Source of the DNA: Thermodesulfovibrionales bacterium
Lineage (GTDB): Bacteria; Nitrospirota; Thermodesulfovibrionia; Thermodesulfovibrionales; SM23-35
NCBI GenBank assembly: GCA_963715195.1
Contig: CAVQRT010000003.1
Location: forward strand, 64,001-128,000
Direction: 5' to 3'
Length of the DNA stretch: 64,000 bases
Shown here: piece after piece, positions 33,739 through 60,100 of the stretch
Position numbering within the stretch: the first letter of the stretch is position 1
How the letters are laid out: each line of letters starts with the position of its first letter
Notes under the pieces: model-generated
The model's input: the letters and a program-made list of their open reading frames with translations, nothing else
What the model was told of the DNA's origin: nothing
Database searches by the model: none
Translations under genes and position numbers: made by a program

Positions 33739-34413
33739 TCAGGAAACCTTTTCGCTTTCTTCTTCTTTTATCGCATATCTGCCTGGTCTCTGCTTTTTAG
33801 ACCAGTCCTTTGCACCGATTTCCTTTTTCAGTTCATTCAGCTTCCCCAGCTCTTTCATCCGTTCATAAATCCTGACCCATGCGCAGGGGACATCAGGACT
33901 TACTTCACACTTTCCCTTCTTGTTGCCGCCGCAGGGACCATTCAGAATGCCCTTTGGACATGATGTCACAGGGCATATTCCTCCGGTCATCCCGAGAACA
34001 CAATCTCCACAGGCAGCACAAATCTCAACCCATTTCCCCTGACCATCAGAGAGTCCGATGAACCGTGTATTCATTGCCGGTAAGACTACAACCTTCTTCA
34101 TCCACTCTGAAATACCCTGGACTCCCGCTCCACATGCCATCGAAAGCACGGCATCATACTGAGCAAATTCATCCTGTATCTGATGAATGAATTCCGGATC
34201 GCATTGACGGAGTATCGTCTTTTCACCGACGGTAATGTCACTTCCCTCTACGTTCCTTGCCATCCTGAGCGCAGAAGCCAACAGTTCCACTTGTCTTTCA
34301 CCCCCGCTCATGCAAACTGTTACGCAACTACCGCATCCCAGGACCAGTACCTTTTTATAGTCGATAACCATATCTCTGATCTCTTCAAATGGCTTGAGCT
34401 CTGCGACAATCAT
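33739..34413 (-). CDS. metV: MTHFR Fe-S small subunit MetV
   Basis: GCGSCVTVC, RQC, ACGAGVQ, CAACGDC, CPVTSCPKGILNGPCGG, CAW. Confidence 0.9.
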   Translation of the reverse strand: MIVAELKPFEEIRDMVIDYKKVLVLGCGSCVTVCMSGGERQVELLASALRMARNVEGSDITVGEKTILRQCDPEFIHQIQDEFAQYDAVLSMACGAGVQGISEWMKKVVVLPAMNTRFIGLSDGQGKWVEICAACGDCVLGMTGGICPVTSCPKGILNGPCGGNKKGKCEVSPDVPCAWVRIYERMKELGKLNELKKEIGAKDWSKKQRPGRYAIKEEESEKVS

Positions 34414-36431
34414 TCATCCACCTTCTTTCCTTTCCGCAATGGATTTATTCCCATGGTTTCAAGTCTCTCCCTGAAACCTGCAAAATCTTCTTCATGAGAA
34501 ATAACAGAGAGCCGGTCTTCACCCATCCCCGTTTCCTTCAGTATCCTTCTCGCTCTCTTCACATGCTCAGTCACCCAGTAGCTGCCTTTCCTGAAACGGC
34601 AGGCATCATCCGGGCACAGAGAGACGATCACACCGTCAGCACCAACCTCAAAAGGATAGATAATCTCTGACTCTTTCATCCGTCCCGTGCAGCCCCGCGC
34701 TATCCAGTATATCGCATCATCGTCAACAGGCGGGCCAAGGGGATCGTGATATCTGCAGTAATATCCGATAACCGCTATTTCAGGAATCTCCTCCCGCGCT
34801 CTATTCACAACACGCTCCACTTCCTGTCGAAAGTCATCGCGTCCGTCGTCTTTCAAATGGATCGCCGATGCGGGGCACTCTGCTGCACAGATACCGCATG
34901 CCTGACACTGGCTGATATCGATTTCTGCAATCTCCTTACCCGGCACGGGTATCTCGAATGGACAGATTCTCAGACAGTTAAGACAGGCTGCACAATTCGA
35001 ATCGACCGATGCCCCAGCCCCGCAATTCAGACATCTGAGAGCTTCTCTGCAAGCCTGATCACGATTATATCCAATATCCACCTCATCGAAGGTGCTTTTT
35101 CTTTGTTCAACAGGTAAAGCAGGCGCCTTTTGTCGCTCTGTTTTATGAATCATCTGAACAATCTGGTCATCCAATGATCGAAGCGAAACACGGTTATCAA
35201 CCAATTTGTCTTCGATACCGCGAAGGTAGAGATGCATTGCCCCTGATACTCTCCTTCCCGAGGCCATGGCCTCGATGACGCTCATCGGACCGGTTACAAC
35301 ATCGCCCGCAGCAAAAACGCCTTTCCTATCAGTAACGCCGGTATCATCGTTAACAATGATAGTTCCTTTCCTGTTCACCTTCAGCCCATCTTGTTTGAGA
35401 TGCTCGACATCAGGAATATATCCGATGGCCAGGATTACCGCGTCGGTCTCCAAATCAAATTCGGAATCTTTGATCGGGACAGGACGTCTTCTTCCAGATG
35501 AGTCCTGATCGCCAAGATCCATCTTGATAAACCTGCCACGCTGAACTGTACTTTGACCGGCAAACTCAAGCGGGGCAGCACGGTAAATAAATTTTATTCC
35601 TTCCATCTCAGCCTGCTCCACCTCTTCCCGTCCGGCCGGCATTTCTTCGATGGTACGCCGATAGACCACCGTAACATCAGGACACCCGAGACGGATACAG
35701 GTCCGTGCAGCGTCGAGCGCGGTATGCCCTCCTCCAATGACCAGGACTTTCTGACCCGGAGATGATGAATAACCTCTATCGATGAGCTTGAGAAATTCAA
35801 CACCTGACCAAATCCCGGGCAGGTCATCCCCCTTACATTTTGGATACAGACTTTTCTGGCTTCCAACCGCGATAAAGACAGCCTGATAATCCTTCAAGAG
35901 CCCTTCGATGGTAAAGTCTTTGCCCAGGGAAACGCCCGTCCTGACTTCTATCCCCAGAGAAAGAATACCGTCAATATCCTTTTGAACCGCCTCCTTGGGA
36001 AGCCTGTACTTCGGTATTCCCTCACTCAGCAGTCCGCCCAGGACTGGCTGAGCCTCGAAGATTGTTACCGCATAGCCGAGCAGCGCAAGATCGTGGGCTG
36101 CCACAAGACCGGTTGGCCCGCTTCCGATTATCGCAATCTTTTCATTGTATGAATTCAGTGGTTTTCCGGCGGAAATAAGATGATTCGCGTGATCCGACGC
36201 ATAGCGCTTCAAGGCCCTGATTGCAACAGGTGCATCCACCTGTGCCCTTCTGCATGCCGTCTCACAGAGCCTCGTACATATTCTCCCGCAGACTGACGGA
36301 AGCGGATTTACCCGTCGTATAATCCGGATCGCCTCATCCGCATCGCCCCGGGCAAGTGCAGATACATAGCCCCGCACATCGGTATTGATCGGGCACGCGG
36401 CCTGGCAGGGAGGGACGATGACCGTAGTCAT
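34410..36431 (-). CDS. GltD/NfnL-like FAD/NAD(P)H oxidoreductase with 2x[4Fe-4S] and C-terminal MvhD/FlpD domain
   Basis: PPCQAACP...CGRICTRLCETACRR, GSGPTG, GGGHTALD, VYRR, EALRCLNC, CAACLNCLRICP, CQACGICAAECP, then the MvhD pattern YYC...CTGR...GADGV..LC....C. Confidence 0.88.
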   Translation of the reverse strand: MTTVIVPPCQAACPINTDVRGYVSALARGDADEAIRIIRRVNPLPSVCGRICTRLCETACRRAQVDAPVAIRALKRYASDHANHLISAGKPLNSYNEKIAIIGSGPTGLVAAHDLALLGYAVTIFEAQPVLGGLLSEGIPKYRLPKEAVQKDIDGILSLGIEVRTGVSLGKDFTIEGLLKDYQAVFIAVGSQKSLYPKCKGDDLPGIWSGVEFLKLIDRGYSSSPGQKVLVIGGGHTALDAARTCIRLGCPDVTVVYRRTIEEMPAGREEVEQAEMEGIKFIYRAAPLEFAGQSTVQRGRFIKMDLGDQDSSGRRRPVPIKDSEFDLETDAVILAIGYIPDVEHLKQDGLKVNRKGTIIVNDDTGVTDRKGVFAAGDVVTGPMSVIEAMASGRRVSGAMHLYLRGIEDKLVDNRVSLRSLDDQIVQMIHKTERQKAPALPVEQRKSTFDEVDIGYNRDQACREALRCLNCGAGASVDSNCAACLNCLRICPFEIPVPGKEIAEIDISQCQACGICAAECPASAIHLKDDGRDDFRQEVERVVNRAREEIPEIAVIGYYCRYHDPLGPPVDDDAIYWIARGCTGRMKESEIIYPFEVGADGVIVSLCPDDACRFRKGSYWVTEHVKRARRILKETGMGEDRLSVISHEEDFAGFRERLETMGINPLRKGKKVDE

Positions 36432-42201: not shown

Positions 42202-42234
42202 ATAATCCTCAGTTATATTTTATAATTTCAATAC

Positions 42235-42329
42235 TCGAGATTCTTCGCTTCGCTCAGAATGACAGCACGTCCTCTATTTTGTCATCTCTGAAGGAGTCAC
42301 GGCTTTCGCCGGGGCGACTGAAGAATCTC
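42235..42329. repeat. REP-like doublet; the first unit is an exact inverted copy of 46677-46707
   Basis: GAGATTCTTCGCTTCGCTCAGAATGACA plus TGTCATCTCTGAAGGAG...GACTGAAGAATCTC, the latter overlapping the hisC 3' end. Confidence 0.8.
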
Positions 42330-43370
42330 AATCTTTTCAATTACTTGTTTTAGTGCATTTATGAACATCCTGTTCTCTTCCCGTGTCCCGACCGTTACCC
42401 TGAGACACCCATCGACAACCCCCTTCATGTTCCGGACGAGCACACCGTTTTTCAGAAGGCCTTCATAGACCCTATCCGGGTTTGGTACCCTGAATAAGAT
42501 GAAATTTGCCTCTGAGGGATATGGCGTGATACCGTTCATTTGTGAGAGTTTGTAAAAGAGGGTTTCCCGCTCCGATACGATTATACGAATATTCCGCCTC
42601 ATCACCGCCTTATCCTTCATCGCTTTCAGGGCAACGACCTGAGAAAGGGCATTGAGATTGAACGGAAGCCTGACCTTGTTCACTTCATGAATGATGCTCT
42701 CTTCCGCAATGAGGAAACCCACCCTCAGTCCTGCCAATCCGACCTTGCTCAGTGTCCTTATAATGACAAGGTGCTCATAGTCGCGGAGCATCGGCATGAA
42801 ACCCCGGTTACTTGCAAAAGGCTGATACGCCTCGTCAACCGCAACGATCGCCTTGCCTTTTGCCGATTCGATGATCTTCAGTATGCTTTCTGCTGCAAAA
42901 CAATTTCCTGTCGGGTTATTCGGTGAACTTAGGAAAATCAGTTTCGGCTTATTTCGCCGAATCTCAATGAGCATTCTCTTCAGATCGAGATCGAATGCAT
43001 CATCAAGCCGGACACCGATTCTCTTCTCTCCGAGGGCCTGTGCGATGATGCCGTACATCGAAAAGGTTGGAACCGGGTAAAGCACCGGCCCGCCAAAGGT
43101 CGTTATGAGATAGTAAATGAGTTCATCCGATCCATTACCCTGAAGGATGTTTCCGGGTCTGATTTTCAGATCCTTTGCGATGGTTTTCTTCAGCGATTTT
43201 GCTTCGGGGTCGGGATACCTGTTTGTCTGGACAGACTGTATAATTTCTTTCGCAATAGTGAAGCCGAAAGGGCTTTCATTCGCATCGAGCTTTGCTATGC
43301 ATGGAATTTCTTTGGCCTGATAAGCCGACAAAGATCTGATATTCGGACGAATGAGTTTTTTGATGTTCAT
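42297..43370 (-). CDS. hisC: Histidinol-phosphate aminotransferase
   Basis: LDANESP, NRYPD, GNGSDE, SPNNPTG, DEAY, RTLSKVGLAGLRVG; directly upstream of hisB. Confidence 0.95.
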   Translation of the reverse strand: MNIKKLIRPNIRSLSAYQAKEIPCIAKLDANESPFGFTIAKEIIQSVQTNRYPDPEAKSLKKTIAKDLKIRPGNILQGNGSDELIYYLITTFGGPVLYPVPTFSMYGIIAQALGEKRIGVRLDDAFDLDLKRMLIEIRRNKPKLIFLSSPNNPTGNCFAAESILKIIESAKGKAIVAVDEAYQPFASNRGFMPMLRDYEHLVIIRTLSKVGLAGLRVGFLIAEESIIHEVNKVRLPFNLNALSQVVALKAMKDKAVMRRNIRIIVSERETLFYKLSQMNGITPYPSEANFILFRVPNPDRVYEGLLKNGVLVRNMKGVVDGCLRVTVGTREENRMFINALKQVIEKIEILQSPRRKP

Positions 43371-43412
43371 GCATGTGCATTATACCACAATAAATATGGT
43401 ATATTTAGTACC

Positions 43413-45299
43413 ATGACTCAGGGCGAAGACCTTTTCGGCACAAGCTGCGAGAAAGATGAAGTCATCTTCAGAGAAGGTGATCAGGGCGACACCATGTATA
43501 TCATCCAGTCCGGGACTGTTGAGATCAGCCAGGATAAGGATGGCAAAAAACTTGTGCTTGCTCTCCTTGAGAAAGGCGACTTCTTCGGAGAGATGGCCCT
43601 GATTGACAAACACCTGCGTTCTGCCACCGCTGCAGCTGTCAGCAACAGCCGCCTTCTTCCCTTCACCCGCACGTCAATCATGGAGAGAATTCGCCAGGAT
43701 CCCGGGGTAGTCCTTCATCTGCTCACAACGCTCTGTCACCGGATTACGCAGACAAATCAGCGTCTGCATGCCATGGTGCAGAGTAATGAGGCATTACGAT
43801 CATTTGTTGAATCAAAAGGACAAATCCTTCCTGAATCAACAGAAAATGGCAGCAACTTCGAGACCTCGCCTTCTGCTGATATATCACCTAAATTCTCTGC
43901 AGATACCCATACGTCTGTTCTGCAAGAACCTCCAAAACGCACAGTTGATCTCAGCATACCACATGAAGAATGCATCCTTGTTGAAAACGGAAAAGCTGTT
44001 TTTCACCAGGGCGACCACGGGAATTCGCTCTACATCATCGTCGAGGGAGGCGTGGAGATCAGTCAGGGACCCGAAGATGACAGGAATGTCCTGGCATATT
44101 TAGGTCCCGGGGATTTCTTCGGTGAGACAGCGATGATCACTGATCAGCCCCGAACTGCTCATGCCTTTGCATTAGGAAAAACATACCTGTTCCCGATTAC
44201 CAAAGATGATTTTTTGGAGCAGTTCAAGACGAAACCGGAGCTTGCGCTATATATCCTTCAGGGACTAATCATCCGCCTCAGGGGATTGCTGGCAGTTTTA
44301 AATGATCCCACAAAATCCATTTCGACTGTGATACAAGCCTTTCCACCCCCCCTGAAAAAGAAAAGTCTGATTAGGACTGCCCTTGTCTCTCTTTCCACCT
44401 GCGGGGGCTGCGCAGCGGTTCTGCTTGAAGACCAGGATGAGCTTGCCCGTCTTCTGAAGCGCGTGAATATCTCCTACTGTCCCATGCTGATCGATGCGGA
44501 GGAACTTGGGGAGGTTGATGTTGCTGTTGTTGACGGAGTTGTGAGGGTAAAGGAAGACGAGGAAAAGATCAAAGAAGTCAGACACAAGAGCCGTTACCTC
44601 GTAGCGTGGGGTACCTGTGCCGCATCGGGCGGCATCCCCGCATATGCAAACCAGCACGAACTGGAAGAATTGATCGAAGAATCATACGGACATGCAAAGG
44701 ATCCTTTTGCCTATTATCTCTCCGGGAGCCGGGGTATTGACGGCGCAACCTACCAGGAACAGGAAAACGAACTGCAACTTCTCCGCCGTTCCCAAAAGCT
44801 GGATGACTTTGTGAGGGTCGACTACTACATTCCCGGTTGTCCGCCGAACGCCCGCCTCCTGAATCTTCTCGTGGATGAACTCAGGGGAGACGGACAGGCT
44901 GAGAAACCAAAATCGATTGTCTGCGGCGAGTGCAGCAGGAAGCATGTCAAAGCAACCGTCGAACATTTTTATATGTTCCCGCGACCGGACTGGGATGTGA
45001 GGCACTGTTTCACTTCACTGGGTGCTGTCTGCCTCGGCTTCATGACCAAGGGCGGATGCGGTGCTGTCTGCCCTCGCGGTGGTCTTCCCTGCTGGGGTTG
45101 CCGCGGACCATCCGAGACCGTCTTTAAAAAAATGGAAGAAGGGAACAGTTTTGAAGAATATATGGTTGATGCGTTTATCGCACGCCACCGCCATCTCGAG
45201 GATCAGATCAGGCCGGTTTTGAAATTATTTCGCAAGAATGCAAACAGCCCTGTGCCGTTCAGCCGGCATGCTACCAATGACAGATCGAGGATCAGATGA
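43413..45299 (+). CDS. Fusion of two cNMP-binding domains with a group-3 [NiFe]-hydrogenase small subunit (MvhG/HydD/HoxY-like)
   Basis: cNMP1 FGEMALID..RSAT and cNMP2 FGETAMIT..RTAH, each followed by a CRP-like C-helix. Then STCGGC, WGTCAASGGIP, PGCPP, VCGEC, CF..GAVCLG..TKGGCGAVCP..GLPCWGCRGP. Confidence 0.92.
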   Translation: MTQGEDLFGTSCEKDEVIFREGDQGDTMYIIQSGTVEISQDKDGKKLVLALLEKGDFFGEMALIDKHLRSATAAAVSNSRLLPFTRTSIMERIRQDPGVVLHLLTTLCHRITQTNQRLHAMVQSNEALRSFVESKGQILPESTENGSNFETSPSADISPKFSADTHTSVLQEPPKRTVDLSIPHEECILVENGKAVFHQGDHGNSLYIIVEGGVEISQGPEDDRNVLAYLGPGDFFGETAMITDQPRTAHAFALGKTYLFPITKDDFLEQFKTKPELALYILQGLIIRLRGLLAVLNDPTKSISTVIQAFPPPLKKKSLIRTALVSLSTCGGCAAVLLEDQDELARLLKRVNISYCPMLIDAEELGEVDVAVVDGVVRVKEDEEKIKEVRHKSRYLVAWGTCAASGGIPAYANQHELEELIEESYGHAKDPFAYYLSGSRGIDGATYQEQENELQLLRRSQKLDDFVRVDYYIPGCPPNARLLNLLVDELRGDGQAEKPKSIVCGECSRKHVKATVEHFYMFPRPDWDVRHCFTSLGAVCLGFMTKGGCGAVCPRGGLPCWGCRGPSETVFKKMEEGNSFEEYMVDAFIARHRHLEDQIRPVLKLFRKNANSPVPFSRHATNDRSRIR

Positions 45300-46597
45300 G
45301 CAAGAAGATTATCTTTCAGAAAGCCACACGCATCGAGGGCAATGCAAATATTCAGGTTGAGGTCGACAGAGGCAGCGTCAAGACAGCCCGTTTCATGGTC
45401 CAGGAATTCCGTGGCTTTGAAGGGTTCATGCGCGGTACCCGAGTCGAGTATGTCCCCCATATGGTGTCCAGGATCTGCGGCCTTTGTTCATCGGCACATC
45501 AGGTAGCATCCATTAAGGCCGTCGAGGAAGCACTTGGCGTTCAGACACCGCGCTCGGTGAGTGCCCTGCGTGAGATTCAAGTCCTCGGAGAGTGGATCAA
45601 CAGCCATGCCCTGAGTTATTTCTTTCTGACCATGCCGGACTTTGTCGGAGCTTCGTCAGGAATCTTCGAACTCTTGCAGAGCCACCCGGAGATCACCAAA
45701 GAAGCCTTTGCCCTGCGCGATGCGGGATTGAAAATCGTGAGGCTCCTCGGGAAACGCACATCCCATGCGGTTACGACGGGGGTCGGCCGCTTTTTTGCAG
45801 ATCCCGATCACAATGACCTCGAAGAAATTCGTGCTATCGCATCCGACGTAAAAGAACGTTCCCTGCGGCTTATTGGTCAGGTCGGGAACATTCACCTGAC
45901 TTCAAAAAGCATTCCCTTTCCCCCTGACCAGCAGATCAACTTTGTAACATATGACGGCAACCCTGCTAAAGATGTTTTCTGCGTATACAACCAGTCCGGA
46001 GCCCTCGAATTGTGCTTCAGCAGGTCAGAGTTTATGGACAATATATCGGAACTGAGGGCAGACTGGACACTGGCTAAATTTCCGTATCTGACGAAGCTGG
46101 GGTTCCCTGCCGGGATTATGCTGGTCGGCCCGCTTTCGCGCAGTTTTCAGGAAAACGGTTTTTTACACGATAAGGATTTGTCGAACCTCGAACTCGCCGC
46201 CCTGCTGCGCGACCGCACATCGCTGACACTCGAAAGCTACGATGCATGCCGCCTTCTTGAGATATACTCGGCGGCAAAGAAAATCCTCCATCTCCTCGAT
46301 GAGGTCGATCTTTCACAGATGAGCGCAGAGGTTGACCTGAAATCAAGCGGACAGGGTATCGGGGTGCTCGAAGCGCCGCGGGGTATCCTCATGCACAGCT
46401 ATTTAGTAAATCAGGGCAAGATCGAACGTATGCGCCTCATGGTCGCCACGCAGTTTAATAATGCGTATATCAATCTCCTCCTCAGGGATCTTGCCGAAAA
46501 ACATCTCGACGGAGACAGCATTTCAGCGGAAGGTGAAAGACTCATCGGCCGCTGTGTGAGGATATTCGACCCCTGCCTCAGTTGCGCCACACATTGA
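45296..46597 (+). CDS. Group-3-like [NiFe]-hydrogenase large subunit without C-terminal extension
   Basis: TRIEG, RGFE, L1 RICGLCSSAH, EAPRG, VATQFN and L2 DPCLSCATH immediately followed by TGA. ATGA overlap with the upstream gene. Confidence 0.92.
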   Translation: MSKKIIFQKATRIEGNANIQVEVDRGSVKTARFMVQEFRGFEGFMRGTRVEYVPHMVSRICGLCSSAHQVASIKAVEEALGVQTPRSVSALREIQVLGEWINSHALSYFFLTMPDFVGASSGIFELLQSHPEITKEAFALRDAGLKIVRLLGKRTSHAVTTGVGRFFADPDHNDLEEIRAIASDVKERSLRLIGQVGNIHLTSKSIPFPPDQQINFVTYDGNPAKDVFCVYNQSGALELCFSRSEFMDNISELRADWTLAKFPYLTKLGFPAGIMLVGPLSRSFQENGFLHDKDLSNLELAALLRDRTSLTLESYDACRLLEIYSAAKKILHLLDEVDLSQMSAEVDLKSSGQGIGVLEAPRGILMHSYLVNQGKIERMRLMVATQFNNAYINLLLRDLAEKHLDGDSISAEGERLIGRCVRIFDPCLSCATH

Positions 46598-46605
46598 AAA
46601 AGACA

Positions 46606-47081
46606 GGATTCGAGGATTCCAGGGGTCAAGGGTTCAGATTGCAGACTTGACCCTACTGGGGCAACTCCTTTGCCCTCTGTCATTCTGAGCGAAGCGAAGA
46701 ATCTCGAATTTTCTGCAGTGCATTTTATCCTTCATCGTTGCCGTTCCGACTTCACCGGAATCCACAGCTAAGAACCCTGCGCCAAGAGCGCAGGGCGTAA
46801 AAATCAAACTCAATACTGTCATTCTCCGGCTTGACCGGAGAATCCAGTTCCTTCTCTCTGGATTGCCCGATCAAGCCTGCCCCAGACTTCGATCGGGGGT
46901 CGGGCAATGACACAAATGAGGAAGCAATTCATCCCTGCGGCAAGACCACAGGGAGTTCTTGCTGATTATTGAATCGGATAGTGAGCGCATTCCTCGCAGC
47001 TTGCTGCGGGGTTAGCGAGCGAATATGGAAATAATAACTCCTTGCGATAAGATACCTCGCAGCTCTGCTGCGGGGTTCTTC
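46606..47081. repeat. Dense cluster of at least three short palindromic repeat families
   Basis: Octamer array 46606-46637; TGTCATT-headed REPs 46678-46705, 46817-46847, 46858-46912; hairpins 46769-46795, 46933-46963, 46992-47011, 47055-47075. Confidence 0.82.
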
Positions 47082-47141: not shown

Positions 47142-47594
47142 ATGAAACTTGATGACATAAGAGCTTTAGCCGAAAGACATCATATACTCCTTATCTATGT
47201 CTTTGGCTCACAGGCAGAAGCGGGGAAAAGATACCTTGAAGGCGAAAATATGATGCCCGAAGATGCTTCCGACCTTGATGTGGCAGTTCTCCTTGACGCA
47301 CCTCCTCCACAGGCCATTGAGATCTATGGGATTCTTTACAGGGAATTCTCAATAATATTTGATCCTTTTGCCATTGACCTCATATTGCTGCATGAAGCAA
47401 ATCCCCTCTTTCAATACGAAATAATTAAGGGGTTCCGGATCTATGAACGAGATGAAGTCTCTGCTGATGACTATGAGGAAAACGTAATGAAGAGGGCTGA
47501 AGACCTCTCCTATAATAAAAGGATTCTCGATAACGAAATCATGGAGTCAATAGAGAATGGTTATTTCGAATTTGAATACAGCCCGAATCCTTGA
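47142..47594 (+). CDS. Minimal nucleotidyltransferase (MntA-like antitoxin)
   Basis: YVFGSQA...SDLDVAV, IDLILL, PLFQYEII; overlaps the HEPN gene. Confidence 0.88.
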   Translation: MKLDDIRALAERHHILLIYVFGSQAEAGKRYLEGENMMPEDASDLDVAVLLDAPPPQAIEIYGILYREFSIIFDPFAIDLILLHEANPLFQYEIIKGFRIYERDEVSADDYEENVMKRAEDLSYNKRILDNEIMESIENGYFEFEYSPNP

Positions 47595-48012
47595 ACTCCT
47601 GAGATTTATCGAGAACTGTGTTCAGGAGCTGAAGCCTTTTTCAACTCTTTCAAAAGAAGATTTTCTTGCAGACAGGAAGAATCCCCCCTTCGTGGAAAGC
47701 TACCTCAGGAGAGGTCTTGAGGCTGTATTTGATATCGGAAGACATATCCTTGCGAAGACATCTGGTTTTAAAGAAATAGAATACAAAGCCATTGCGAGAG
47801 AACTTGGAGAAAAGGAAGTTATTACAAAAGAACTCTCTGAAGTATTGTACATAATGGCAGGATACAGAAATCGCATGGTTCATTTTTACAGAGAAATCAC
47901 TTCTGAGGAGCTTTATCATATTACTGCGAATAATCTGAAAGATTTCGAAAGCTTTATCAGAGAAATTGTCTCATTTATAAGAGCATACGAAGGGAAAACC
48001 AAGACAGGTTAG
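47557..48012 (+). CDS. HEPN/DUF86 RNase toxin (HepT-like)
   Basis: MAGYRNRMVHFY (Rx4H-Y), DIGRHI. Confidence 0.9.
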   Translation: MVISNLNTARILELLRFIENCVQELKPFSTLSKEDFLADRKNPPFVESYLRRGLEAVFDIGRHILAKTSGFKEIEYKAIARELGEKEVITKELSEVLYIMAGYRNRMVHFYREITSEELYHITANNLKDFESFIREIVSFIRAYEGKTKTG

Positions 48013-48023
48013 AACCACTTTTA

Positions 48024-48443
48024 TTACACGTCGTTAATATGTCTTTTCAAAAACTTCTCTATCGCCTTCACAGCTTCATCTTTAAACTGTGCGGGACTTT
48101 GAGCTATCCAGACAGTAAAGTTGTAGAGCTCCTTGATATCGGCCACTAACCATTTCTTGTTTGCGAAAAGAAACGTAAAGAGCGTTGTTATAGCAATCCT
48201 TTTATTCCCGTTTTCAAATGGATGGTTTTTGATCATGAGATAAAACAGCGTGCCCGCCCTTGTAAGGAACCCGGGGTAAAGGAATTTTCCTTCAAACGTT
48301 TGGAAAGGCGCTGCCAAACAGCTTTCCAGAATATTTGGCGCACGTGTCGAGAAGTCTGGAATGGGTTCGTTGAATGCCAAGAGTGCCTGGGCCATCTTAT
48401 GCGTTATATGTTCGACATCTTTCACGGTAACTCTCTTGACCAT
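48024..48443 (-). CDS. Doc/Fic-family toxin
   Basis: NHPFENGNKR Doc-type motif; ESCLAAPFQTFEG..LYP. Confidence 0.9.
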   Translation of the reverse strand: MVKRVTVKDVEHITHKMAQALLAFNEPIPDFSTRAPNILESCLAAPFQTFEGKFLYPGFLTRAGTLFYLMIKNHPFENGNKRIAITTLFTFLFANKKWLVADIKELYNFTVWIAQSPAQFKDEAVKAIEKFLKRHINDV

Positions 48444-48446
48444 CTG

Positions 48447-48713
48447 CTATTCTCTGCCAAGGAGTTTCAGTAATTCCCCGTATTCCTGAAATGTTTTCTT
48501 CACGGCTCGATCGATAAGTTCCTTGTCCTCCTCACTCAACGTTTTGCCTGTAATGTCGGTTACATACTTTCTGGGGATTGCATAACTTCTTCCTATTCTG
48601 ATGGCTTTTATTTGTCCTCTTTTAATTTTTTGGTAGATAGCGATTCTGCTCACTCCCAGAATTTTCGCGAACTCCGCAATTGAAATATATTCGCCTTTTC
48701 CCATAGACCCCAT
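48447..48713 (-). CDS. Excisionase-like HTH protein, probable Doc antitoxin
   Basis: YISIAEFAKILGVSRIAIYQKIKRGQIKAIRIGRSY (HTH_17-like) and a C-terminal helix EYGELLKLLG; 3 bp upstream of doc. Confidence 0.75.
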   Translation of the reverse strand: MGSMGKGEYISIAEFAKILGVSRIAIYQKIKRGQIKAIRIGRSYAIPRKYVTDITGKTLSEEDKELIDRAVKKTFQEYGELLKLLGRE

Positions 48714-51178: not shown

Positions 51179-54100
51179 CTATTTCTTATGAATAATAATT
51201 GAACCACCTCCGATAATCGTTGCAGGGTCATCTGTATCAGGAGCACCCATCTTATTGTCATAGACAATCTGGTCAGTATCCTTGTCCCAAATCTTGATCC
51301 TGAACTTATCGTACCGTCCGCCGCCTTTATTTGACCGTCAATCGCGGTCAGCATGAAGCCGTAGTTTCCTGTGCCGTTGATTGTTCCGGTCACCTTTGTA
51401 CTGTGCTCTCGGTCCTGCAACTACAAGCCATTCATAAGAATCTGAATGGAATTTCAGATCTGCAACTTTGAACTGGAATTGAGTTTCGCCGGTCGGAATC
51501 GTCGCACCTTTCTTGTACTTGGATACGAATCCAAAGGTTGCTTTGCCAGTGAGGTCTGTATCGGCCGCGTAGGCTCCATCAGGTGAATCAATCCATCCCC
51601 CGCCGGTCACAAAACCGCCATCCGGATCATACACAACGATATATTCAAAACGCCCCGTGTCAGTTTCATCATGATTGTCTGTAACCGTGAGTGTTACAAC
51701 ATAGACACCGGGTGTACTATATTCATGTGAACCGGTCACTGTTCCGGAACCATTTGATTCATCGACAGTCCCAACCGTTGTCGAGTCGTCGCCCCAATCC
51801 CAAACAGCAGTGTGGACATCTTCGTATTAGCGTCTGTAAACTGTGCACTCGTTGATATGGTTGTATCTACTTGAACAGGATCAATTGGTGCTGTAATCAC
51901 ATCAACAACGGGTGGTACATTAGCTGAGATAACTCCAAAGCTTGCGCCTATTGTGTGATCGGTTGTCACATTGTGGAAGGTGTAGCTCGCGACCACACCC
52001 ACTGAAGTACCGTCGACAAGAACATCTACTATGTAACAGCCCTCTGCAGGCGAAATTGTAAATTCCTGACTTTCCCCCTCAGGAACCGCTGCATACACTG
52101 TCGGACTGATACTTCCATTAACGCATTCTGTCACTGTTATCACATAGGTATCCGCTGCGATCACGGTTACCGGGCTCTCCCCTGAGTGGATCGCCCCCAC
52201 CCACAGGTCTACACACGGTTCCGGCCCGCGATGTGCACACACCTGCGCCGGACAAGGTCAGGATCCGTAATGTAGTTCGAGTAGGTCGCCTCTACCGTGT
52301 AAGCCCCTACCCCCAGCACCGACGGATCGTACATATCCCTTAGGTCGCAGCTCACCGAGAACGACGCCCCCGCTGCCAGCGTCATTACGTCGTCCGGTAT
52401 CCCGTAGGCATGCCACACCCGGTCCCGCGGCGGCAGGACATCGCCCAGGCCGTCCCTCACCGTGAAGGTCGTGTTGTAGCAGTCAGGCGTGATGATCTCT
52501 ATCGCACTGCCGCTCTGGTTCCAGAAGATGGCCTCCACCATCAACGCCTCCCCTTCCCGCGTCGGTACAGCCGGCACCTCCAGTTCCTCGGTGTTTGCGT
52601 CACACGCATCGCCCAGCCCGTCGCCGTCACTGTCTGTCTGCGATGCATTGGCCACCAGTGGACAGTTATCATCAGGTCCGGTACCCCGTCCCTGTCTGTG
52701 TCGATGAGGTCTAATCCGCACAGTCCTGGTCTATCCCGTCATTTGGTATCTCGGCGACCGGGTTCAGGAGTACAGGTATAGGTGTGTACTCCTCCCGTGC
52801 GGTCTGCACCCCGGCTGCTGCCATGCTCCCACTCCACAATGTGCATCCCCATCCCAGCTCTCTCGAGCCGTGCTCCGTTAATGCATCCGGTCATGTCTTC
52901 GTGTCGCAGACCTCCGTCGCACCCGGGTGATCGAGCTGTACCGTCGTACAGTCATCCCCGCCGTAGGCAACCGAGATATATCCGTGTCGATCCCCGTCGA
53001 GCTCGCAAAGCTCGCCTCTATCGCATGATCAGCCGTGACGTTTATAAATTCATAGGTCGTTACTGCTCCTACTGATACCCCATCAACCAAGACATCCTCC
53101 ACGTGGTAGCCCGTATCAGGGGTTATGGTAAAGGTCTGGTTATTGCCCGAGGTTACCAGCACGTACCCTGACGGATCAGTCGGCGTAATGCTCCCGTTAG
53201 CACCCGCTGTCACTGTTATCACATAGGTATCCGCTGCGATCACGGTTACCGGGCTCTCCCCTGAGTGGATCGCCCCCACCCACAGGTCTACACACGGTTC
53301 CGGCAGCGAGTGCACACACCGCCCGGACAAGGTCAGGATCCGTAATGTAGTTCGAGTAGGTCGCCTCTACCGTGTAAGCCCCTACCCCCAGCACCGACGG
53401 ATCGTACATATCCCTTAGGTCACAGCTCACCGAGAACGACGCCCCCGCTGCCAGCGTCATTACGTCGTCCGGTATCCCGTAGGCATGCCACACCCGGTCC
53501 CGCGGCGGCAGGATGCTGCCCAGTCCGTCCCTCACCGTGAAGGTCGTGTTGTAGCAGTCAGGCGTGATGATCTCTATCGCACTGCCGCTCTGGTTCCAGA
53601 AGATCGCCTCCACCATCAACGCCTCCCCTTCCCGCCTCGGCACTGCCGGCACCTCCAGTTCCTCGGTGTTTGCATCACACGCATCGCCCAGCCCGTCGCC
53701 GTCTGTATCATCCTGCGATGCATTGGCCACCAGTGGGCAGTTGTCCTCTGTGTCCGGTACCCCATCATTGTCTGTGTCGATGAGGTCTAATCCGTCACAG
53801 TCCTGGTCTATCCCGTCATTTGGTATCTCGGCTACCGGTGTGCCAGGCGTACACGTGTCATCCTGTGCTCCGGCTGTACAGGTAAGTACTCCGGCTGCTG
53901 CACATGCTCCCACACCGCATGATGTCGCATCCCCATACCAGCTCTCTCCTGAGCCGTCCTCCGTTAATGCATCACAATCATTGTCTATCGTGTCGCAGAC
54001 CTCCGTCGCACCCGGGTTGATCGAGGCATCTGTGTCATCGCAGTCTGTATCGTCCGCCACATATCCGCCAGGTACAGTACACGCCTCGGTGCTCGCTGTA

Positions 54101-57100
54101 GGATCACCATAGGTGTCTCCATCGCTGTCCAGATAGAAGGTTGTCAAAACTCCGTTATCTACAACACCGTCACAGTCGTTGTCCAATCCGTCGCAGATCT
54201 CTGCCACCGATGTGCCGGGTGCGCAGGGAGTCTCAACTCCTGCCACGCAACTGCTCGGGGTATTATTGGTCAGGCACTCGCCAACTCCGCAGGTGTCATC
54301 TACAACGTAATCCTCATCAGCTGCACCATCGCAATCATCATCCACACCGTCACACGTGGCATCGTCTGCTGCCGGTGTGCCAGGAGTACAGGTATCAACT
54401 TGTACTCCTCCCGTGCAGGTCTGCACCCCGGCTGCTGCACATGCTCCCACTCCGCATGATGTCGCATCCCCATACCAGCTCTCTCCTGAGCCGTCCTCCG
54501 TTAATGCATCACAATCATTGTCTATCGTGTCGCAGACCTCCGTCGCACCCGGGTTGATTGAGCTGTCACCGTCGTCACAGTCATCCCCGCCGTAGGCAAC
54601 CGAGATATATCCGTCTCCATCCCCATCAGAGCTTGCAAAGCTCGCCTCTATCGCATGATCAGCCGTGACGTTTATAAATTCATAGGTCGTCACTGCTCCT
54701 ACTGATACCCCATCAACCAAGACATCCTCCACGTGGTAGCCCGTATCAGGGGTTATGGTAAAGGTCTGGTTATTGCCCGAGGTTACCAGCACGTACCCTG
54801 ACGGATCAGTCGGCGTAATGCTCCCGTTAGCACCCGCTGTCACTGTTATCACATAGGTATCCGCTGCGATCACGGTTACCGGGCTCTCCCCTGAGTGGAT
54901 CGCCCCCACCCACAGGTCTACACACGGTTCCGGCAGCGATGTGCACACACCGCCCACAAGGTCAGGATCCGTAATGTAGTTCGAGTAGGTCGCCTCTACC
55001 GTGTAAGCCCCTACCCCCAGCACCGACGGATCGTACATATCCCTTAGGTCACAGCGTCACCGAGAACGACGCCCCCGCTGCCAGCGTCATTACGTCGTCC
55101 GGTATCCCGTAGGCATGCCACACCCGGTCCCGCGGCGGCAGGATGCTGCCCAGTCCGTCCCTCACCGTGAAGGTCGTGTTGTAGCAGTCAGGCGTGATGA
55201 TCTCTATCGCACTGCCGCTCTGGTTCCAGAAGATGGCCTCCACCATCAACGCCTCCCCTTCCCGCCTCGGCACTGCCGGCACCTCTAGTTCCTCGGTGTT
55301 TGCATCACACGCATCGCCCAGCCCGTCGCCGTCTGTATCATCCTGCGATGCATTGGCCACCAGTGGGCAGTTGTCCTCTGTGTCCGGTACCCCATCATTG
55401 TCTGTGTCGATGAGGTCTAATCCGTCACAGTCCTGGTCTATCCCGTCATTTGGTATCTCGGCTACTGGTGTGCCAGGTGTACACGTGTCATCCTGTGCTC
55501 CGGCTGTACAGGTAAGTACTCCGGCTGCTGCACATGCCCCCACTCCGCATGATGTCGCATCCCCATACCAGCTCTCTCCTGAGCCGTCCTCCGTTAATGC
55601 ATCACAATCATTGTCTATCGTGTCGCAGACCTCCGTCGCACCCGGGTTGATCGAGGCATCTGTGTCATCGCAGTCTGTATCGTCCGCCACATATCCGCCA
55701 GGTACAGTACACGCCTCGGTGCTCGCTGTAGGATCACCATAGGTGTCTCCATCGCTGTCCAGATAGAAGGTTGTCAAAACTCCGTTATCTACAACACCGT
55801 CACAGTCGTTGTCCAATCCGTCGCAAATCTCTGCCACCGATGTGCCGGGTGCGCAGGGAGTCTCAACTCCTGCCACGCAACTGCTCGGGGTATTATTGGT
55901 CAGGCACTCGCCAACTCCGCAGGTGTCATCTACAACGTAATCCTCATCAGCTGCACCATCGCAATCATCATCCACACCGTCACACGTGGCATCATCTGCC
56001 GCCGGTGTGCCAGGAGTACAGGTGTCATCACCCCATACTCCAGCCGTACAAGTCTCTTCCCCAGTAGAAGCACAGGCGCCTATTCCACAAGTTGATGGAC
56101 GAGTAAGTTCTTCATCAGTACTTCCATCGCAGTCGTTATCTATGTTGTCGCAGCCCTCTGCAGTAGCACCTGCCAATGGATCACACGTGTCATCGCCCCA
56201 TACTCCAGCCGTACAAGTCTCGATTCCCGTGTTGCCTGCGCACTGGCCGACACCACAGGAAGTAATTTGGGTGATCCCGTCTATCGTTCCATCACAATCA
56301 TTATCTATGTTGTCACATACCTCGGTTGCACCCGGGTTGATTGATGAATCGCCATCATTGCAATCTTCTTCTGTAGCAGAGCCTGTACATCCAATTATTA
56401 CGCCTACTCCATAGGTGTCACCATCTACATCCAGACATGTATCCACAGGATCGCATATGCCATCTCCATCATCGTCAGGGCCCTGAGATGCATCTCCATA
56501 AACATTAGGAACATGACTAACAGGATCAAAATCAGAAATGCAGTTATCTGCAAGATAGAGGGTTTGTAAATTTATTAGACTACTTAGTGCTGCTATGTCA
56601 GATATTTGATTGCTGGATAGAACCAGAACAGTCAGACTGCTCAGATTTGACAATGCAGAGATGTCAGATATCTGATTGCTGCCAAGATTTAGATCAGTCA
56701 GACTGGTCACATTTGATAATGCTGCTATAGCAGCTATCTGATTACTGGATAGAACCAGCTCAGTCAAACTGGTCAAATTTGACAATAAAGAGATGTCAGA
56801 TATCAGATTGTTGTTCAGATAAAGATGAGTCAGACCGGTCACATTTGTTAATGCTGCTATATCAGCTATCTGATTGCTGGATAGAACCAGAACAGTCAGA
56901 CTGCTCAGATTTGACAATGCAGAGATATCAGATATCTGATTGCTGCCAAGATTTAGATGAGTTAGACTGGTCAGATTTGATAATAAGGAGATGTCAGATA
57001 TCAGATTAGCGGTTAGAACCAGAGTAGTCAGACTGCTCAGGTTTGACAATGGAGTGATGTCAGATATCTGATTGCTGTCTAGATAGAGAGTAGTCAGACT

Positions 57101-60100
57101 GCTCAGATTTGATAATGAAGAGATATCGGATATCTGATTGCGTGATAGAAGCAGAACAGTCAGACTGCTCAGATTTGATAATGAAGAGATATCAGATATC
57201 TGATTGGTGTCCAGATAGAGCTCAGTCAGACTGGTCACATTTGATAATGCTGATAAACCAGATATCTGATTGTTGTTCAGATTTAGATAAACCAGACTGC
57301 TCAGATTTGATAATGAAGAGATATCGGATATCTGATTGCTACTCAGATTCAGATGGGTCAGATTAATGGCATATTCGAGGCCTGTAAGATCAACGACTCC
57401 TTTATTAGTGGCACCAAGGGTAATTAAATTAAGCATGTCAGCAACAGTCGGATCAGAAACACCCAGTTCCGTCTCTATCGCTGCCTTGAGGTTTGCATCG
57501 GGGATATTAACCGGACAGGGATTATCAATAATGTCGTCGCAGTCATTATCCAACCCGTCGCACGTTGTCTCGGTAGCTTCGTAAGTTGCGATACCGCTGT
57601 AGTCATTAACCCAGCCGCCTGCCCCGCTACAGGTCTTAGTTGAGCCTGAGCAGACGCCGTCCTGCAGGTCATTGAGCGGAGCAGTAAGGCCGTTGTCAGT
57701 AGTTCCATCACAGTCATTGTCTAATCCATCACATATTTCAGCTCCAGGTGTTCCAGGTGTACACGAATCTTGTACAACTCCTGCAACGCAACTCGTTACG
57801 CCTGTTGATGCACAAGCACCTACTCCGCAGCTGGTGGCCGTCGATACATAGTCTTCATCAGCTACACCATCGCAATCATCGTCTGTACCGTCACACGTGG
57901 CATCATCTGCTGCCGGTGTGCCTTCAGTACAGGTATCAACTTGTACTCCTCCCGAACACGTAAGTTGACCAGCTGCTGCACATGCCCCCACTCCGCATGA
58001 TGTCGGATCTCCGTACCAGCTCTCATCAGAGCCATCAAGAGTACCTGCATCACAATCATTGTCTATCGTGTCGCATACCTCCGTTGCGCCCGGGTTGATT
58101 GAGGAATCGGTATCATCGCAGTCATCCCCCATAGGCCCTCATACCCATCACCGTCTGCATCGATATCACAGGCATCGCCTATACCATCCGTATCTGAATC
58201 TTCCTGGCCTGGATTGCTATCATCAGGACAGTTGTCACAGACATCGCCTATGCCATCACCATCCGTATCGCCCTGAGCAGGATTAATATCATCAGGGCAA
58301 TTGTCGCACAGATCGCCTATGCCATCAGTATCTGAGTCTGCCTGATCGGGGTTATAATCATCTGGACAGTTGTCAGAAGTATCACCAACGCCATCGCCCT
58401 GATATCGATAGATGTCCCAGGAACTGCCATTATATTTCTGCCAAACAATTCTATTTGAAAAGACAGTCGGGTAATAGTTAGCCGAGGAATCCGTTGTTAC
58501 TCGGTGAGGTGGTATTGCAGGCGTAGATAAATCATATTCGTAGATATCATAGTTACCGTGAGTGGAATCCTGCCAAACAATAATGTTCCCAGAGATAGAA
58601 GGTGCTTTTTGATCATAAATACTGTCGGTAATCTGGGTTTCAATCCCCGTCGAAATCTCATACATATAAATGTCCCATCGGCCATCCCTAAAATCTTGCC
58701 AGACGATTCGGTTTCCTGAGATTGTCGGTGCTTCTTGATTTCCTGGCTCATCGGTTATCCGGGTTTCAACCCCTGTCGAAATGTCATACAAAAAAATGTC
58801 ATAATTGCCATATCTGTCGTCCTGCCAGACGATTTGGTCTCCTGAGATAGCCGGTTGTGATGAAGTCGAAATGTCGGTAGTAGTATTGACCTTGGTCTCT
58901 ATCCCAGTAGATATATCATACAGGAACACGTCCCATCTGCTCGCGCCGTTATCATAATTGTAGACAATGCGATTTCCTGATATCCGCGGATAAGATTGTG
59001 TTTGTGCATCGGAAGTTATCCGAGTTTCAGCTCCGTCGAACATGTAAATGTCCGTATTGCCATGCCTGTTATCGTGCCAGACGATACGGTCACCTGAAAT
59101 AGATGGTCTCTCCTGACTTCCCGGGTCACTGGTTATCCGGCTTTCAGACCCGTCATATGAATAAATTTCAAAGTCGCCAACTCTGTAATCTTGCCAGACA
59201 ACCCTATCCCCCCAAATTGAACTTAAGACGAAAAAGCCGGTGTTGGTATCAGCAACATCTTCCCTAATCCGGGTCTCACTTCTGTCAGAGTCTCGGCTCT
59301 CATTGTCATCCAAAGGAAATGCATCATTGAGGTCATCTACTCCATCACCGTCTGAGTCTGAATTCAATGAGTTAGTCCCGAAGACTGATTCTTCATAATC
59401 CGTGAGTCCATCGCCATCATCATCTGCGTCTAAGCAATCATCTATCCCATCAGAATCAGTATCACCCTCGTCAACTTCACTATCACAGTCGTTGTCTATT
59501 CCATCGCATATCTCCGTAGCATCCGGATTTATGGATGAATCACCGTCATTGCAATCCCCCTCACATATCCTAAAGCCATCGGTGTCAGCATCCGCTTCAT
59601 CAATAGGCACTTCCGTGTCACAATCATTGTCTATCCCATCACAGAGCTCTGTTGCACCCGGATATGTATTGCCGTCATTGTCATCACAGTCAGTTTCAAG
59701 ACCGGTTAGCTCTGTTGAAACTTTATAACCCGCTGGTCTTTCACATGACGTGTTATCAACGGTTTGATCCGAGTATCCATCATCATCCGCATCTTTCCAC
59801 CAAGTCTGCCCAGGATGCTCGTTCGGATCAGCGTCATCACAATCAGTATTGTCAGCAACATATCCTCCTGGTGCAGAACATGCCTGAGTAGTTACCGAAG
59901 GATTGCCATAGGTGTCGCCATCGCTGTCCTGATAGAAAGTCATCAGAACTCCATTATCAACACTGCCGTCACAGTCATTGTCCAACCCATCACACGTTGT
60001 CTCGGTAACTTCATAAGTTGCAATACCGCTGTAATCATTAACCCAGCCGCCTGCGCCACTACAGGTCTTAGTTGAGCCCGAGCAGACGCCAGCCTGTAGG

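Follow-up and report, generated by a model that had tools for sequence, protein, structure and literature searches.

Tandem cyclic-nucleotide-binding domains fused to a group-3 [NiFe]-hydrogenase small subunit: a candidate second-messenger-gated hydrogenase from a Thermodesulfovibrionales bacterium

Hydrogenases are controlled through gene expression, maturation and O2. In the HydDB table, as given in the accessible part of PMC5037454, [NiFe] enzymes linked to signalling appear only as groups 2b and 2c. Natural enzymes whose large subunit lacks the C-terminal maturation tail, in groups 2b, 2d, 4c, 4e and 4g, are described in the available portion of PMC7294309 as using the ordinary Hyp machinery. 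HoxI, which accompanies the NAD-reducing soluble hydrogenase (SH, group 3d) of C. necator, is described as CAP-like and believed to bind NADP, according to an excerpt of PMC12319191 that cites Burgdorf 2005. Here we analyse a 64,000-nucleotide stretch of DNA from a Thermodesulfovibrionales bacterium (henceforth the window), in which a frame of 628 amino acids (aa) joins two cyclic nucleotide monophosphate (cNMP)-binding domains to a hydrogenase small subunit and is followed by a large-subunit gene. An earlier note on this DNA, made from the sequence alone, had proposed control by cyclic nucleotides and knew of no characterised enzyme with this architecture. Our own reading, for and against which the evidence seems to us evenly poised, is that the two genes encode a two-subunit, cytoplasmic, group-3-derived [NiFe] hydrogenase gated directly by cyclic AMP (cAMP) or cyclic GMP (cGMP), with its electron partners encoded elsewhere. 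A search of the open literature returned no description of a cNMP-hydrogenase fusion, nor of direct cAMP/cGMP allostery on hydrogenases; within that scope the claim of novelty holds for the fusion, and it is tempered by HoxI, a known stand-alone cNMP-fold companion of group 3d/3b enzymes with a degenerate pocket.

A fusion family within group 3

The listing of open reading frames (ORFs) and Pfam bear out the architecture first described: one continuous 628-aa ORF carries two cNMP_binding domains (158.5 bits) and Oxidored_q6 (88.8 bits), and the following 433-aa ORF carries NiFeSe_Hases. The coupling claimed between the small subunit and a large subunit with intact ligands is seen in the 4-base ATGA overlap of the two genes, which is kept in 16 of 16 homolog loci checked, and in the Ni ligands C61, C64, C427 and C430. 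We compared the fused small subunit with the best 120 of 968 protein hits and aligned 109 full-length members; the large subunit was compared with 120 listed homologs, of which 119 were aligned. The Fe-S cysteine motifs, said by the earlier note to be complete, proved so: the 12 cysteines (C330, C333, C402, C476, C504, C507, C532, C540, C549, C553, C560 and C563) are kept in 108-109 of the 109 full-length members, and alignment to 5odc_E finds the three cysteine-ligated cluster sites of an MvhG-type subunit, so that by analogy with MvhG three [4Fe-4S] clusters are inferred. This domain also contains a conserved insert specific to the family at about aa 426-447.

The fusion, with both Pfam domains, was present in 119 of these 120 best homologs, the exception being a 368-aa fragment on a 1.2-kb contig, and the full-length homologs among them were 46-98% identical to the fused small subunit. 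Both domains were likewise found in 100% of an ESM Atlas cluster of 53 members. Independent contigs from estuary and sediment runs (contigs, not raw reads) cross the junction with 0 gaps each (X1, 42559-45527; X5, 44034-44852). The source assembly is 97.8% complete with 6.6% contamination and contains repeated cAMP-gene regions, features that might suggest an assembly chimera, or a hydrogenase linked to a cNMP protein through chance read-through; the fused homologs, the gap-free contigs and the 53/53 cluster refute this explanation and leave it a negligible probability. When loci were scanned across genomes with the entire fusion, hits to the cNMP motif predominated and true members made up 4 of the 80 loci; when 120 listed shorter hits were screened for unfused members, most started inside a domain on short contigs. 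Two small subunits look unfused, P0308 (313 aa, on a 13-kb contig) and P0336 (287 aa, 35% identity, with the same C-terminal region); together with P0354 and P0355 they may, from their sequences, mark a pre-fusion state.

The large subunit appears competent but unusual, with a predicted NiFe site. Residues E14, E42, R59, C61, C64, H68, D115, R362, H367, D425, C427, C430 and H433 are invariant in 119 of 119 aligned sequences, all of which have the group-3 [NiFe] motifs (L1, RxCGxC; L2, DPCxxC(A/S)xH; the Glu of TRIEG and the Arg of APRG). The protein stops at the last histidine of L2, and the maturation tail is absent in 120 of 120 listed homologs, a point that the earlier note had overlooked. 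In a FastTree phylogeny of 142 large subunits, rooted on HoxC and HoxG and built without group 3a or methanogen MvhA references, the family forms one clade (support 1.0, stem 0.74) within the 3c/3d-like radiation of group 3, distinct both from HoxH and from the MvhA of the source genome, and its sister sequences are tailed. This answers the proposed phylogenetic check with a clade of its own within group 3. Databases label clade members F420-non-reducing or F420-reducing hydrogenase, and no NCBIfam hydrogenase model reaches its cut-off (167 and 187 bits vs cut-offs of 450 and 800). Overall, the sequences define a group-3 lineage that is real and conserved and seems not to have been described before.

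Tail loss and fusion co-occur, the closest large subunits outside the family (P0354 and P0355) having tails of 17 and 13 residues, and the unfused-looking P0336 exists. These facts would fit a control of assembly in which the cNMP module stands in for the proteolytic checkpoint that was lost with the tail, and sets the moment at which the two subunits may join. We regard this as very improbable, as maturation proceeds in other tail-less hydrogenases with no module of this kind (PMC7294309, in part). Fifteen of 119 non-family group-3 representatives in the tree also end at the L2 histidine, some of which may be truncated records, and tail loss was rejected as proof of a sensory role on this ground. 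A separate tail-less cluster with 3b-like large subunits (P0438, P0482, P0448, P0439, P0460, P0419, P0463 and P0497) suggests that the tail was lost more than once in group 3.

Named carriers belong to Nitrospirota (Thermodesulfovibrionales), Deltaproteobacteria, Syntrophobacterales, Desulfobacterales and Chloroflexota (Anaerolineae). The fusion was found in 3 of 401 genomes of a phylum sample and in 10 of 390 of a class sample, all ten from one family (9 of 56 besides the source genome); samples around the deltaproteobacterial and Anaerolineae carriers returned only the seed genome (1 of 301 each), which marks it as rare there and does not imply absence. At least one further NiFe large subunit was encoded in all 13 carrier genomes examined. 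The family is rare and patchy, and behaves like an accessory cassette.

The cyclic-nucleotide-binding half

Both phosphate-binding cassettes and both C-helices described by the earlier note are present, and there is no helix-turn-helix (HTH). The cassettes read FGE..RSA (G59, E60, R69, S70) and FGE..RTA (G237, E238, R247, T248), each conforming to the CRP-type pattern G-E-x(8)-R-(S/T/A), and the C-helices are long (aa 98-124 and 275-297 in the model). Conservation of the pockets is close to complete: G, E and R are retained in both domains of 107 of the 109 full-length members, and the residue after the cassette Arg is S/T in 96 of 109 (domain 1) and S/T/A in 93 of 109 (domain 2). G59, E60 and R69 of domain 1 occur in 109 of 109, R110 in 108, T114 in 70 and N115 in 65, the last three of which we take to be the equivalents of the adenine contacts R123, T127 and S128 of CRP. 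G237, E238 and R288 of domain 2 are found in 109 of 109 and R247 in 107 of 109, and of the adenine-contact set the arginine alone is retained on the domain 2 C-helix. The pockets thus appear unequal, domain 1 keeping CRP-type adenine contacts and domain 2 an Arg-Thr cassette. In two pairwise comparisons the ratio of nonsynonymous to synonymous substitution rates (dN/dS) was 0.16-0.17 for domain 1, 0.09-0.10 for domain 2, 0.06-0.08 for the Fe-S domain and the large subunit, and 0.63-0.81 for the linker; judged by these values, purifying selection is acting on both cNMP domains.

The linker (aa 135-180) has a mean identity of 13%, is about 30 residues shorter in some members and has a predicted local distance difference test (pLDDT) score below 50, in a full small-subunit model of mean pLDDT 74.8. 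The model of residues 1-312 alone had a predicted template-modelling score (pTM) of 0.72, although 51 of its residues have pLDDT below 50, and this score suggests that the two cNMP domains are held in a fixed mutual orientation. Modelled as two chains without alignments, domains 1 and 2 gave a pair score of 0.62 (best of three controls, 0.00); among solved complexes 51 of 78 reach this mark, and among mismatches 2 of 108. Runs shared at least 90% of contacts, and partner pLDDT was at least 80. The modelled interface is C-helix on C-helix in register (residues 104, 107, 111 and 114 with 282, 285, 289 and 292), and the cNMP domains are accordingly modelled as an intramolecular CRP-like pseudo-dimer with the geometry of the CRP dimer. 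The top fold matches of residues 1-312 were CRP proteins and cAMP-bound Bd1971 (Z 14-15, root-mean-square deviation (rmsd) 2.1-3.8 Å over one domain). A tandem arrangement like that of PKA/PKG was rejected, both domains aligning only at rmsd 10-16 Å. Overall, sequence and model make the cNMP half look functional.

The cNMP folds could instead serve a structural role, or have a pyridine nucleotide or some other small molecule as their ligand, in an ordinary 3c-like enzyme that borrows an MvhD module, for example the fusion encoded at 34410-36431 of the window in the metF/metV/folD block. Such a relation to HoxI would find precedent in the cNMP-fold genes of two reference operons, the C. necator SH operon and a Rhodococcus 3b operon, in the NADP thought to be bound by HoxI (PMC12319191, in part), and in the FlpD-containing gene 7 kb upstream in the window, L111 and L115. 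We judge it improbable: the pockets are canonical and conserved, unlike those of HoxI and the 3b protein, the domains are 27% and 20% identical to HoxI, cAMP-type genes are neighbours, and in L110, L112, L113 and L114 the cassette is not near the metV block. Descent from HoxI is unsupported, as the two fused domains group together (bootstrap 75) and not with HoxI, in a weak tree of 120 columns.

Signalling genes and layout of the cassette

ORFs were listed for 25 loci; 41 and then 30 of these ORFs were scanned against Pfam, and the rest were named by BLAST to the source genome or left unnamed. Thirteen loci had readable flanks and a downstream side that could be assessed (the window, L003, L004, L088, L090/L091 counted once, L095 and L110-L116); the count omits short contigs, as well as G229 with its 205 bases of downstream sequence. 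A cAMP-type gene lies within about 2 kb of the cassette in 9 of the 13 (Table 1); the four without one are the window, L004, L088 and L095. The neighbours are six different cAMP-type genes, none of them fixed. In 5 of 6 genomes, whole-genome family searches placed the nearest cAMP-type domain at a distance of 0.8-2.0 kb, with a chance of 0.9-3.7% each, and 0 of 15 other NiFe large-subunit genes in the same six genomes had such a domain within 2 kb. One cNMP hit of G1115 in these counts is the cut-off start of the cassette's own gene; it is not the nearest and raises the chance figure slightly. In G1096, a one-contig genome, the only cyclase of the genome lies 10 kb from the cassette.

These surroundings also bear on the opposite direction of signalling, in which a low-activity hydrogenase would sense H2 and its redox state would alter the cNMP module, through nucleotide affinity or through contact with a cyclase, phosphodiesterase or kinase, and so convert H2 into a cAMP signal, as a group-3 parallel to groups 2b/2c. 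No mvhD, hdrA, diaphorase or protease gene was found in the cassette, in the window or in the homolog loci read, so that redox-partner and protease genes are missing as for a sensor; the large subunit is tail-less in 120 of 120 listed homologs, as in the sensor HoxC (PMC7294309, in part); the flanks of loci without cAMP genes still contain signalling genes (response regulators and kinases in L004, PP2C/FHA in L095); and the hosts own other hydrogenases. The family, on the other side, lacks an output domain and shows no one partner gene conserved throughout, it retains three full cluster sites, it keeps the L1 histidine H68 (119/119) where HoxC has Gln, and its tail loss is not diagnostic, being shared with the tail-less group-3 representatives counted above. 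cNMP domains are, moreover, ligand-input modules. We consider an H2 sensor of this kind unlikely.

Table 1. Coordinates of the cassette and its parts in the window, and cAMP-type genes beside the cassette in homolog loci
Feature	Position or locus	Strand	Basis
Fused small subunit, (cNMP-binding)2 + MvhG-like Fe-S subunit, 628 aa	43413..45299	+	Pfam, solved-structure matches, homolog family
cNMP domain 1 (aa 8-124): G59/E60/R69/S70 cassette, C-helix with R110, T114, N115	43434..43784	+	
Flexible linker (aa 135-180), length and sequence variable	43815..43952	+	
cNMP domain 2 (aa 186-297): G237/E238/R247/T248 cassette; C-helix runs on into Fe-S domain	43968..44303	+	
Hydrogenase small-subunit domain (aa 320-570), 12 cluster cysteines	44370..45122	+	Best solved match 5odc_E MvhG, 165.8 bits
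C-terminal helical extension of small subunit	45123..45299	+	Helices in model
GAGG ribosome-binding site of large subunit, inside last codons of small-subunit gene	45287-45290	+	
[NiFe] large subunit, 433 aa, group-3 type, without C-terminal maturation tail	45296..46597	+	Best solved matches 7t2r_D, 5odc_F
Extended -10-like box (TG-n-TATATT), 7 bases 5' of start codon, no Shine-Dalgarno	43397..43405	+	Read from sequence
CHASE2 cyclase	L110		
Class II phosphodiesterase-like genes	L111, L113, L116		
cNMP-Ser/Thr kinases	L090/L091, L112, L114		
GNAT-cNMP protein, then phosphodiesterase-like gene	L115		
SulP-STAS-cNMP protein	L003		

The box 5' of the cassette is a probable leaderless promoter, read from its sequence; of 7 homolog loci inspected, 6 have a comparable -10-like box 7-9 bases ahead of the start. 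The box at 43397..43405 was not among the hits of a consensus promoter scan, for which a -35 box is required as well, and the promoter/terminator scan performed at chance level. The start of the divergent hisC gene lies 42 bases from that of the hydrogenase (window 43368-43415), each 7-8 bases behind its own -10-like box and with no Shine-Dalgarno, and the two promoters are probably overlapping, divergent and leaderless. A direct repeat with a period of 11 bases, presumably akin to an OmpR/PhoB-type box, occurs just 5' of the -10 box, 20-45 bases before the start, in L001, L086, L087, L089 and L091, and is absent in the window. A 36-base palindromic element stands in inverted copies around hisC and the cassette (window 42230-42265 and 46677-46712); we do not read these as mobile-element ends, the element being a dispersed palindrome with 5 genome copies that is very deep in all four sediment runs.

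The gene at 34410-36431 of the window (reverse strand), between folD and metV and near metF, encodes a 673-aa fusion of GltD-like flavin adenine dinucleotide (FAD)/Fe-S, ferredoxin and MvhD/FlpD domains, and lies 7 kb upstream of the cassette in syntenic position in the window, L111 and L115. From its domains it may be an unusual electron-input module for methylene-tetrahydrofolate reductase. On the other side of the cassette, a nucleotidyltransferase and HEPN pair at 47142-48713 is followed by Fic and HTH genes on the opposite strand, a toxin-antitoxin-like island edge. The stretch 51300-63000 (reverse strand) is taken up by large ORFs of secreted type, in which MopE-like cysteine repeats, leucine-rich repeats and beta-helix domains occur, a region of higher G+C that is internally repeated and partly frameshifted. 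Past these genes, 18-26 kb downstream of the cassette, lies a cAMP cluster composed of a cNMP-kinase with a stop, a split phosphodiesterase and a shortened cyclase. Three related copies of this cluster exist in the assembly (C3:128800-136300, C4:676-4110 and C5:7231-16526), beside large secreted repeat proteins and in two cases partly broken, and contain a cyclase, a class II phosphodiesterase-like gene, a cNMP-kinase and a large P-loop regulator; their threefold occurrence reflects either an island duplication or mixed strains.

Proposed mechanism and comparison with known systems

The leaderless-looking two-gene cassette would give rise to a tail-less large subunit and a small subunit with two apparently intact cNMP pockets, the step that can be seen in the sequence, and the Hyp machinery could load the NiFe site without a protease step, as is established for other tail-less hydrogenases. 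The cNMP domains would fold back through a parallel C-helix coiled coil into the modelled intramolecular copy of the CRP dimer. Nucleotide binding might then shift the coiled coil. The domain 2 C-helix, whose end is about 30 residues from C330/C333 of the proximal cluster, would relay the shift to the Fe-S subunit and thereby switch either the turnover of H2 or the way in which an electron partner docks, possibly a ferredoxin or MvhD-type module encoded elsewhere. The source of the signal would be the genes usually nearby, for a class III cyclase and a class II phosphodiesterase-like protein, and the gated hydrogenase would act as an accessory enzyme beside the host's ordinary hydrogenases. 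The cyclic-nucleotide control proposed by the earlier note has gained conserved pockets, purifying selection, cAMP-gene neighbours and the CRP-like pseudo-dimer model, and it is from these that we infer the control itself.

Several observations weigh against such an enzyme. The cassette has no electron-partner gene. In the 97.8% complete source assembly, hypD and HycI models and hypA/B/D/E/F queries gave no match, and hypC (C7:143354-143647) was the only maturation gene found; relatives have hypD in 4 of 4 tested (one split) and HycI in 12 of 12, and the hyp cluster of the source strain is either unassembled or lost, in which latter case neither of its hydrogenases would mature. Its other hydrogenase is a true 3c operon on contig C14, with MvhA, carrying a 24-residue tail, behind hdrA and mvhD. 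An RNA run (X20, share 0.15) yielded only short pieces of the locus (112-173 bases, depth 2-4.5) and could contain DNA. Three of the 10 class carriers are broken: an IS110 element has inserted in G1115, and G229 and G1124 have frameshifts that may be errors of the assembly. The source genome's nearest cAMP-type domain is 19 kb away (chance 0.2), and 7 of the 9 loci with such neighbours are of one family or mutually alike and not independent, so that the neighbourhood is a pattern and not a significance test. The passing score of the pseudo-dimer may stem from likeness to solved CRP dimers, and domain 1 could instead pair with domain 1 of a second chain.

With these points taken into account, we still think it somewhat probable that no hydrogenase before this one has been found under the direct control of a second messenger, its H2 oxidation or evolution being switched on or off along with a local cyclase/phosphodiesterase circuit, or that it conversely reports H2 into this circuit, and that it represents an unnamed group-3 lineage with a single-chain CRP-like pseudo-dimer and two unequal pockets. 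If true, the H2 flux of Nitrospirota, Desulfobacterota and Chloroflexota in sediments would be tied directly to second-messenger signalling, an unclassified clade would be added to group 3, and a two-gene, protease-independent, ligand-switchable hydrogenase would become available; the intact pocket would also offer a handle on the role of HoxI-type domains on group-3 enzymes.

Among known systems, the hydrogenase half is closest to the group 3c enzyme MvhAG(D) (PDB 5odc, 9sw2), the best match of the Fe-S domain in sequence and fold, with the same 12 cluster cysteines, and a match to the large subunit at 186.6 bits. In contrast to MvhAG(D), the unit in the window and in the loci read lacks mvhD, hdrA and other heterodisulfide reductase genes, the large subunit has no cleavable C-terminal extension in any of 120 listed homologs, two cNMP domains are fused to the small subunit, and the clade stands apart from the genome's MvhA. 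HoxI and the cNMP-fold gene of the 3b operon share with the fusion the cNMP fold, the C-helix, the lack of an HTH and the link to group 3. However, HoxI is a stand-alone single domain in a diaphorase operon that has lost the pocket Arg (His there), and the Rhodococcus protein lacks both the pocket Glu and Arg, unlike the fused domains; the diaphorase and protease genes of groups 3b/3d are present in the reference operons and absent from the loci read.

HoxBC/HupUV (2b) and the putative diguanylate-cyclase-linked 2c enzymes resemble the family in their two subunits, tail-less large subunit, lack of a redox partner and signalling context. They differ in belonging to the group 2 lineage (about 24-29% identity over two short stretches), in signalling through a separate histidine kinase and in lacking cNMP domains; the large subunit described here falls outside group 2 in phylogeny, shares the absent C-terminal extension, which is not diagnostic, and has no conserved adjacent histidine kinase or diguanylate cyclase in the loci read. 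CRP/CAP and Bd1971 (PDB 4ev0, 6hq5, 7pza) are the top fold matches of each cNMP domain, including the C-helix, and dimerise through it, but in the fusion a single chain is predicted to supply both halves of the dimer, and an Fe-S subunit takes the place of an HTH or EAL domain as output. Overall, by operon, tail or tree the family belongs to none of groups 3c, 3b/3d and 2b, and it combines an MvhG-like Fe-S subunit with a CRP-like regulator.

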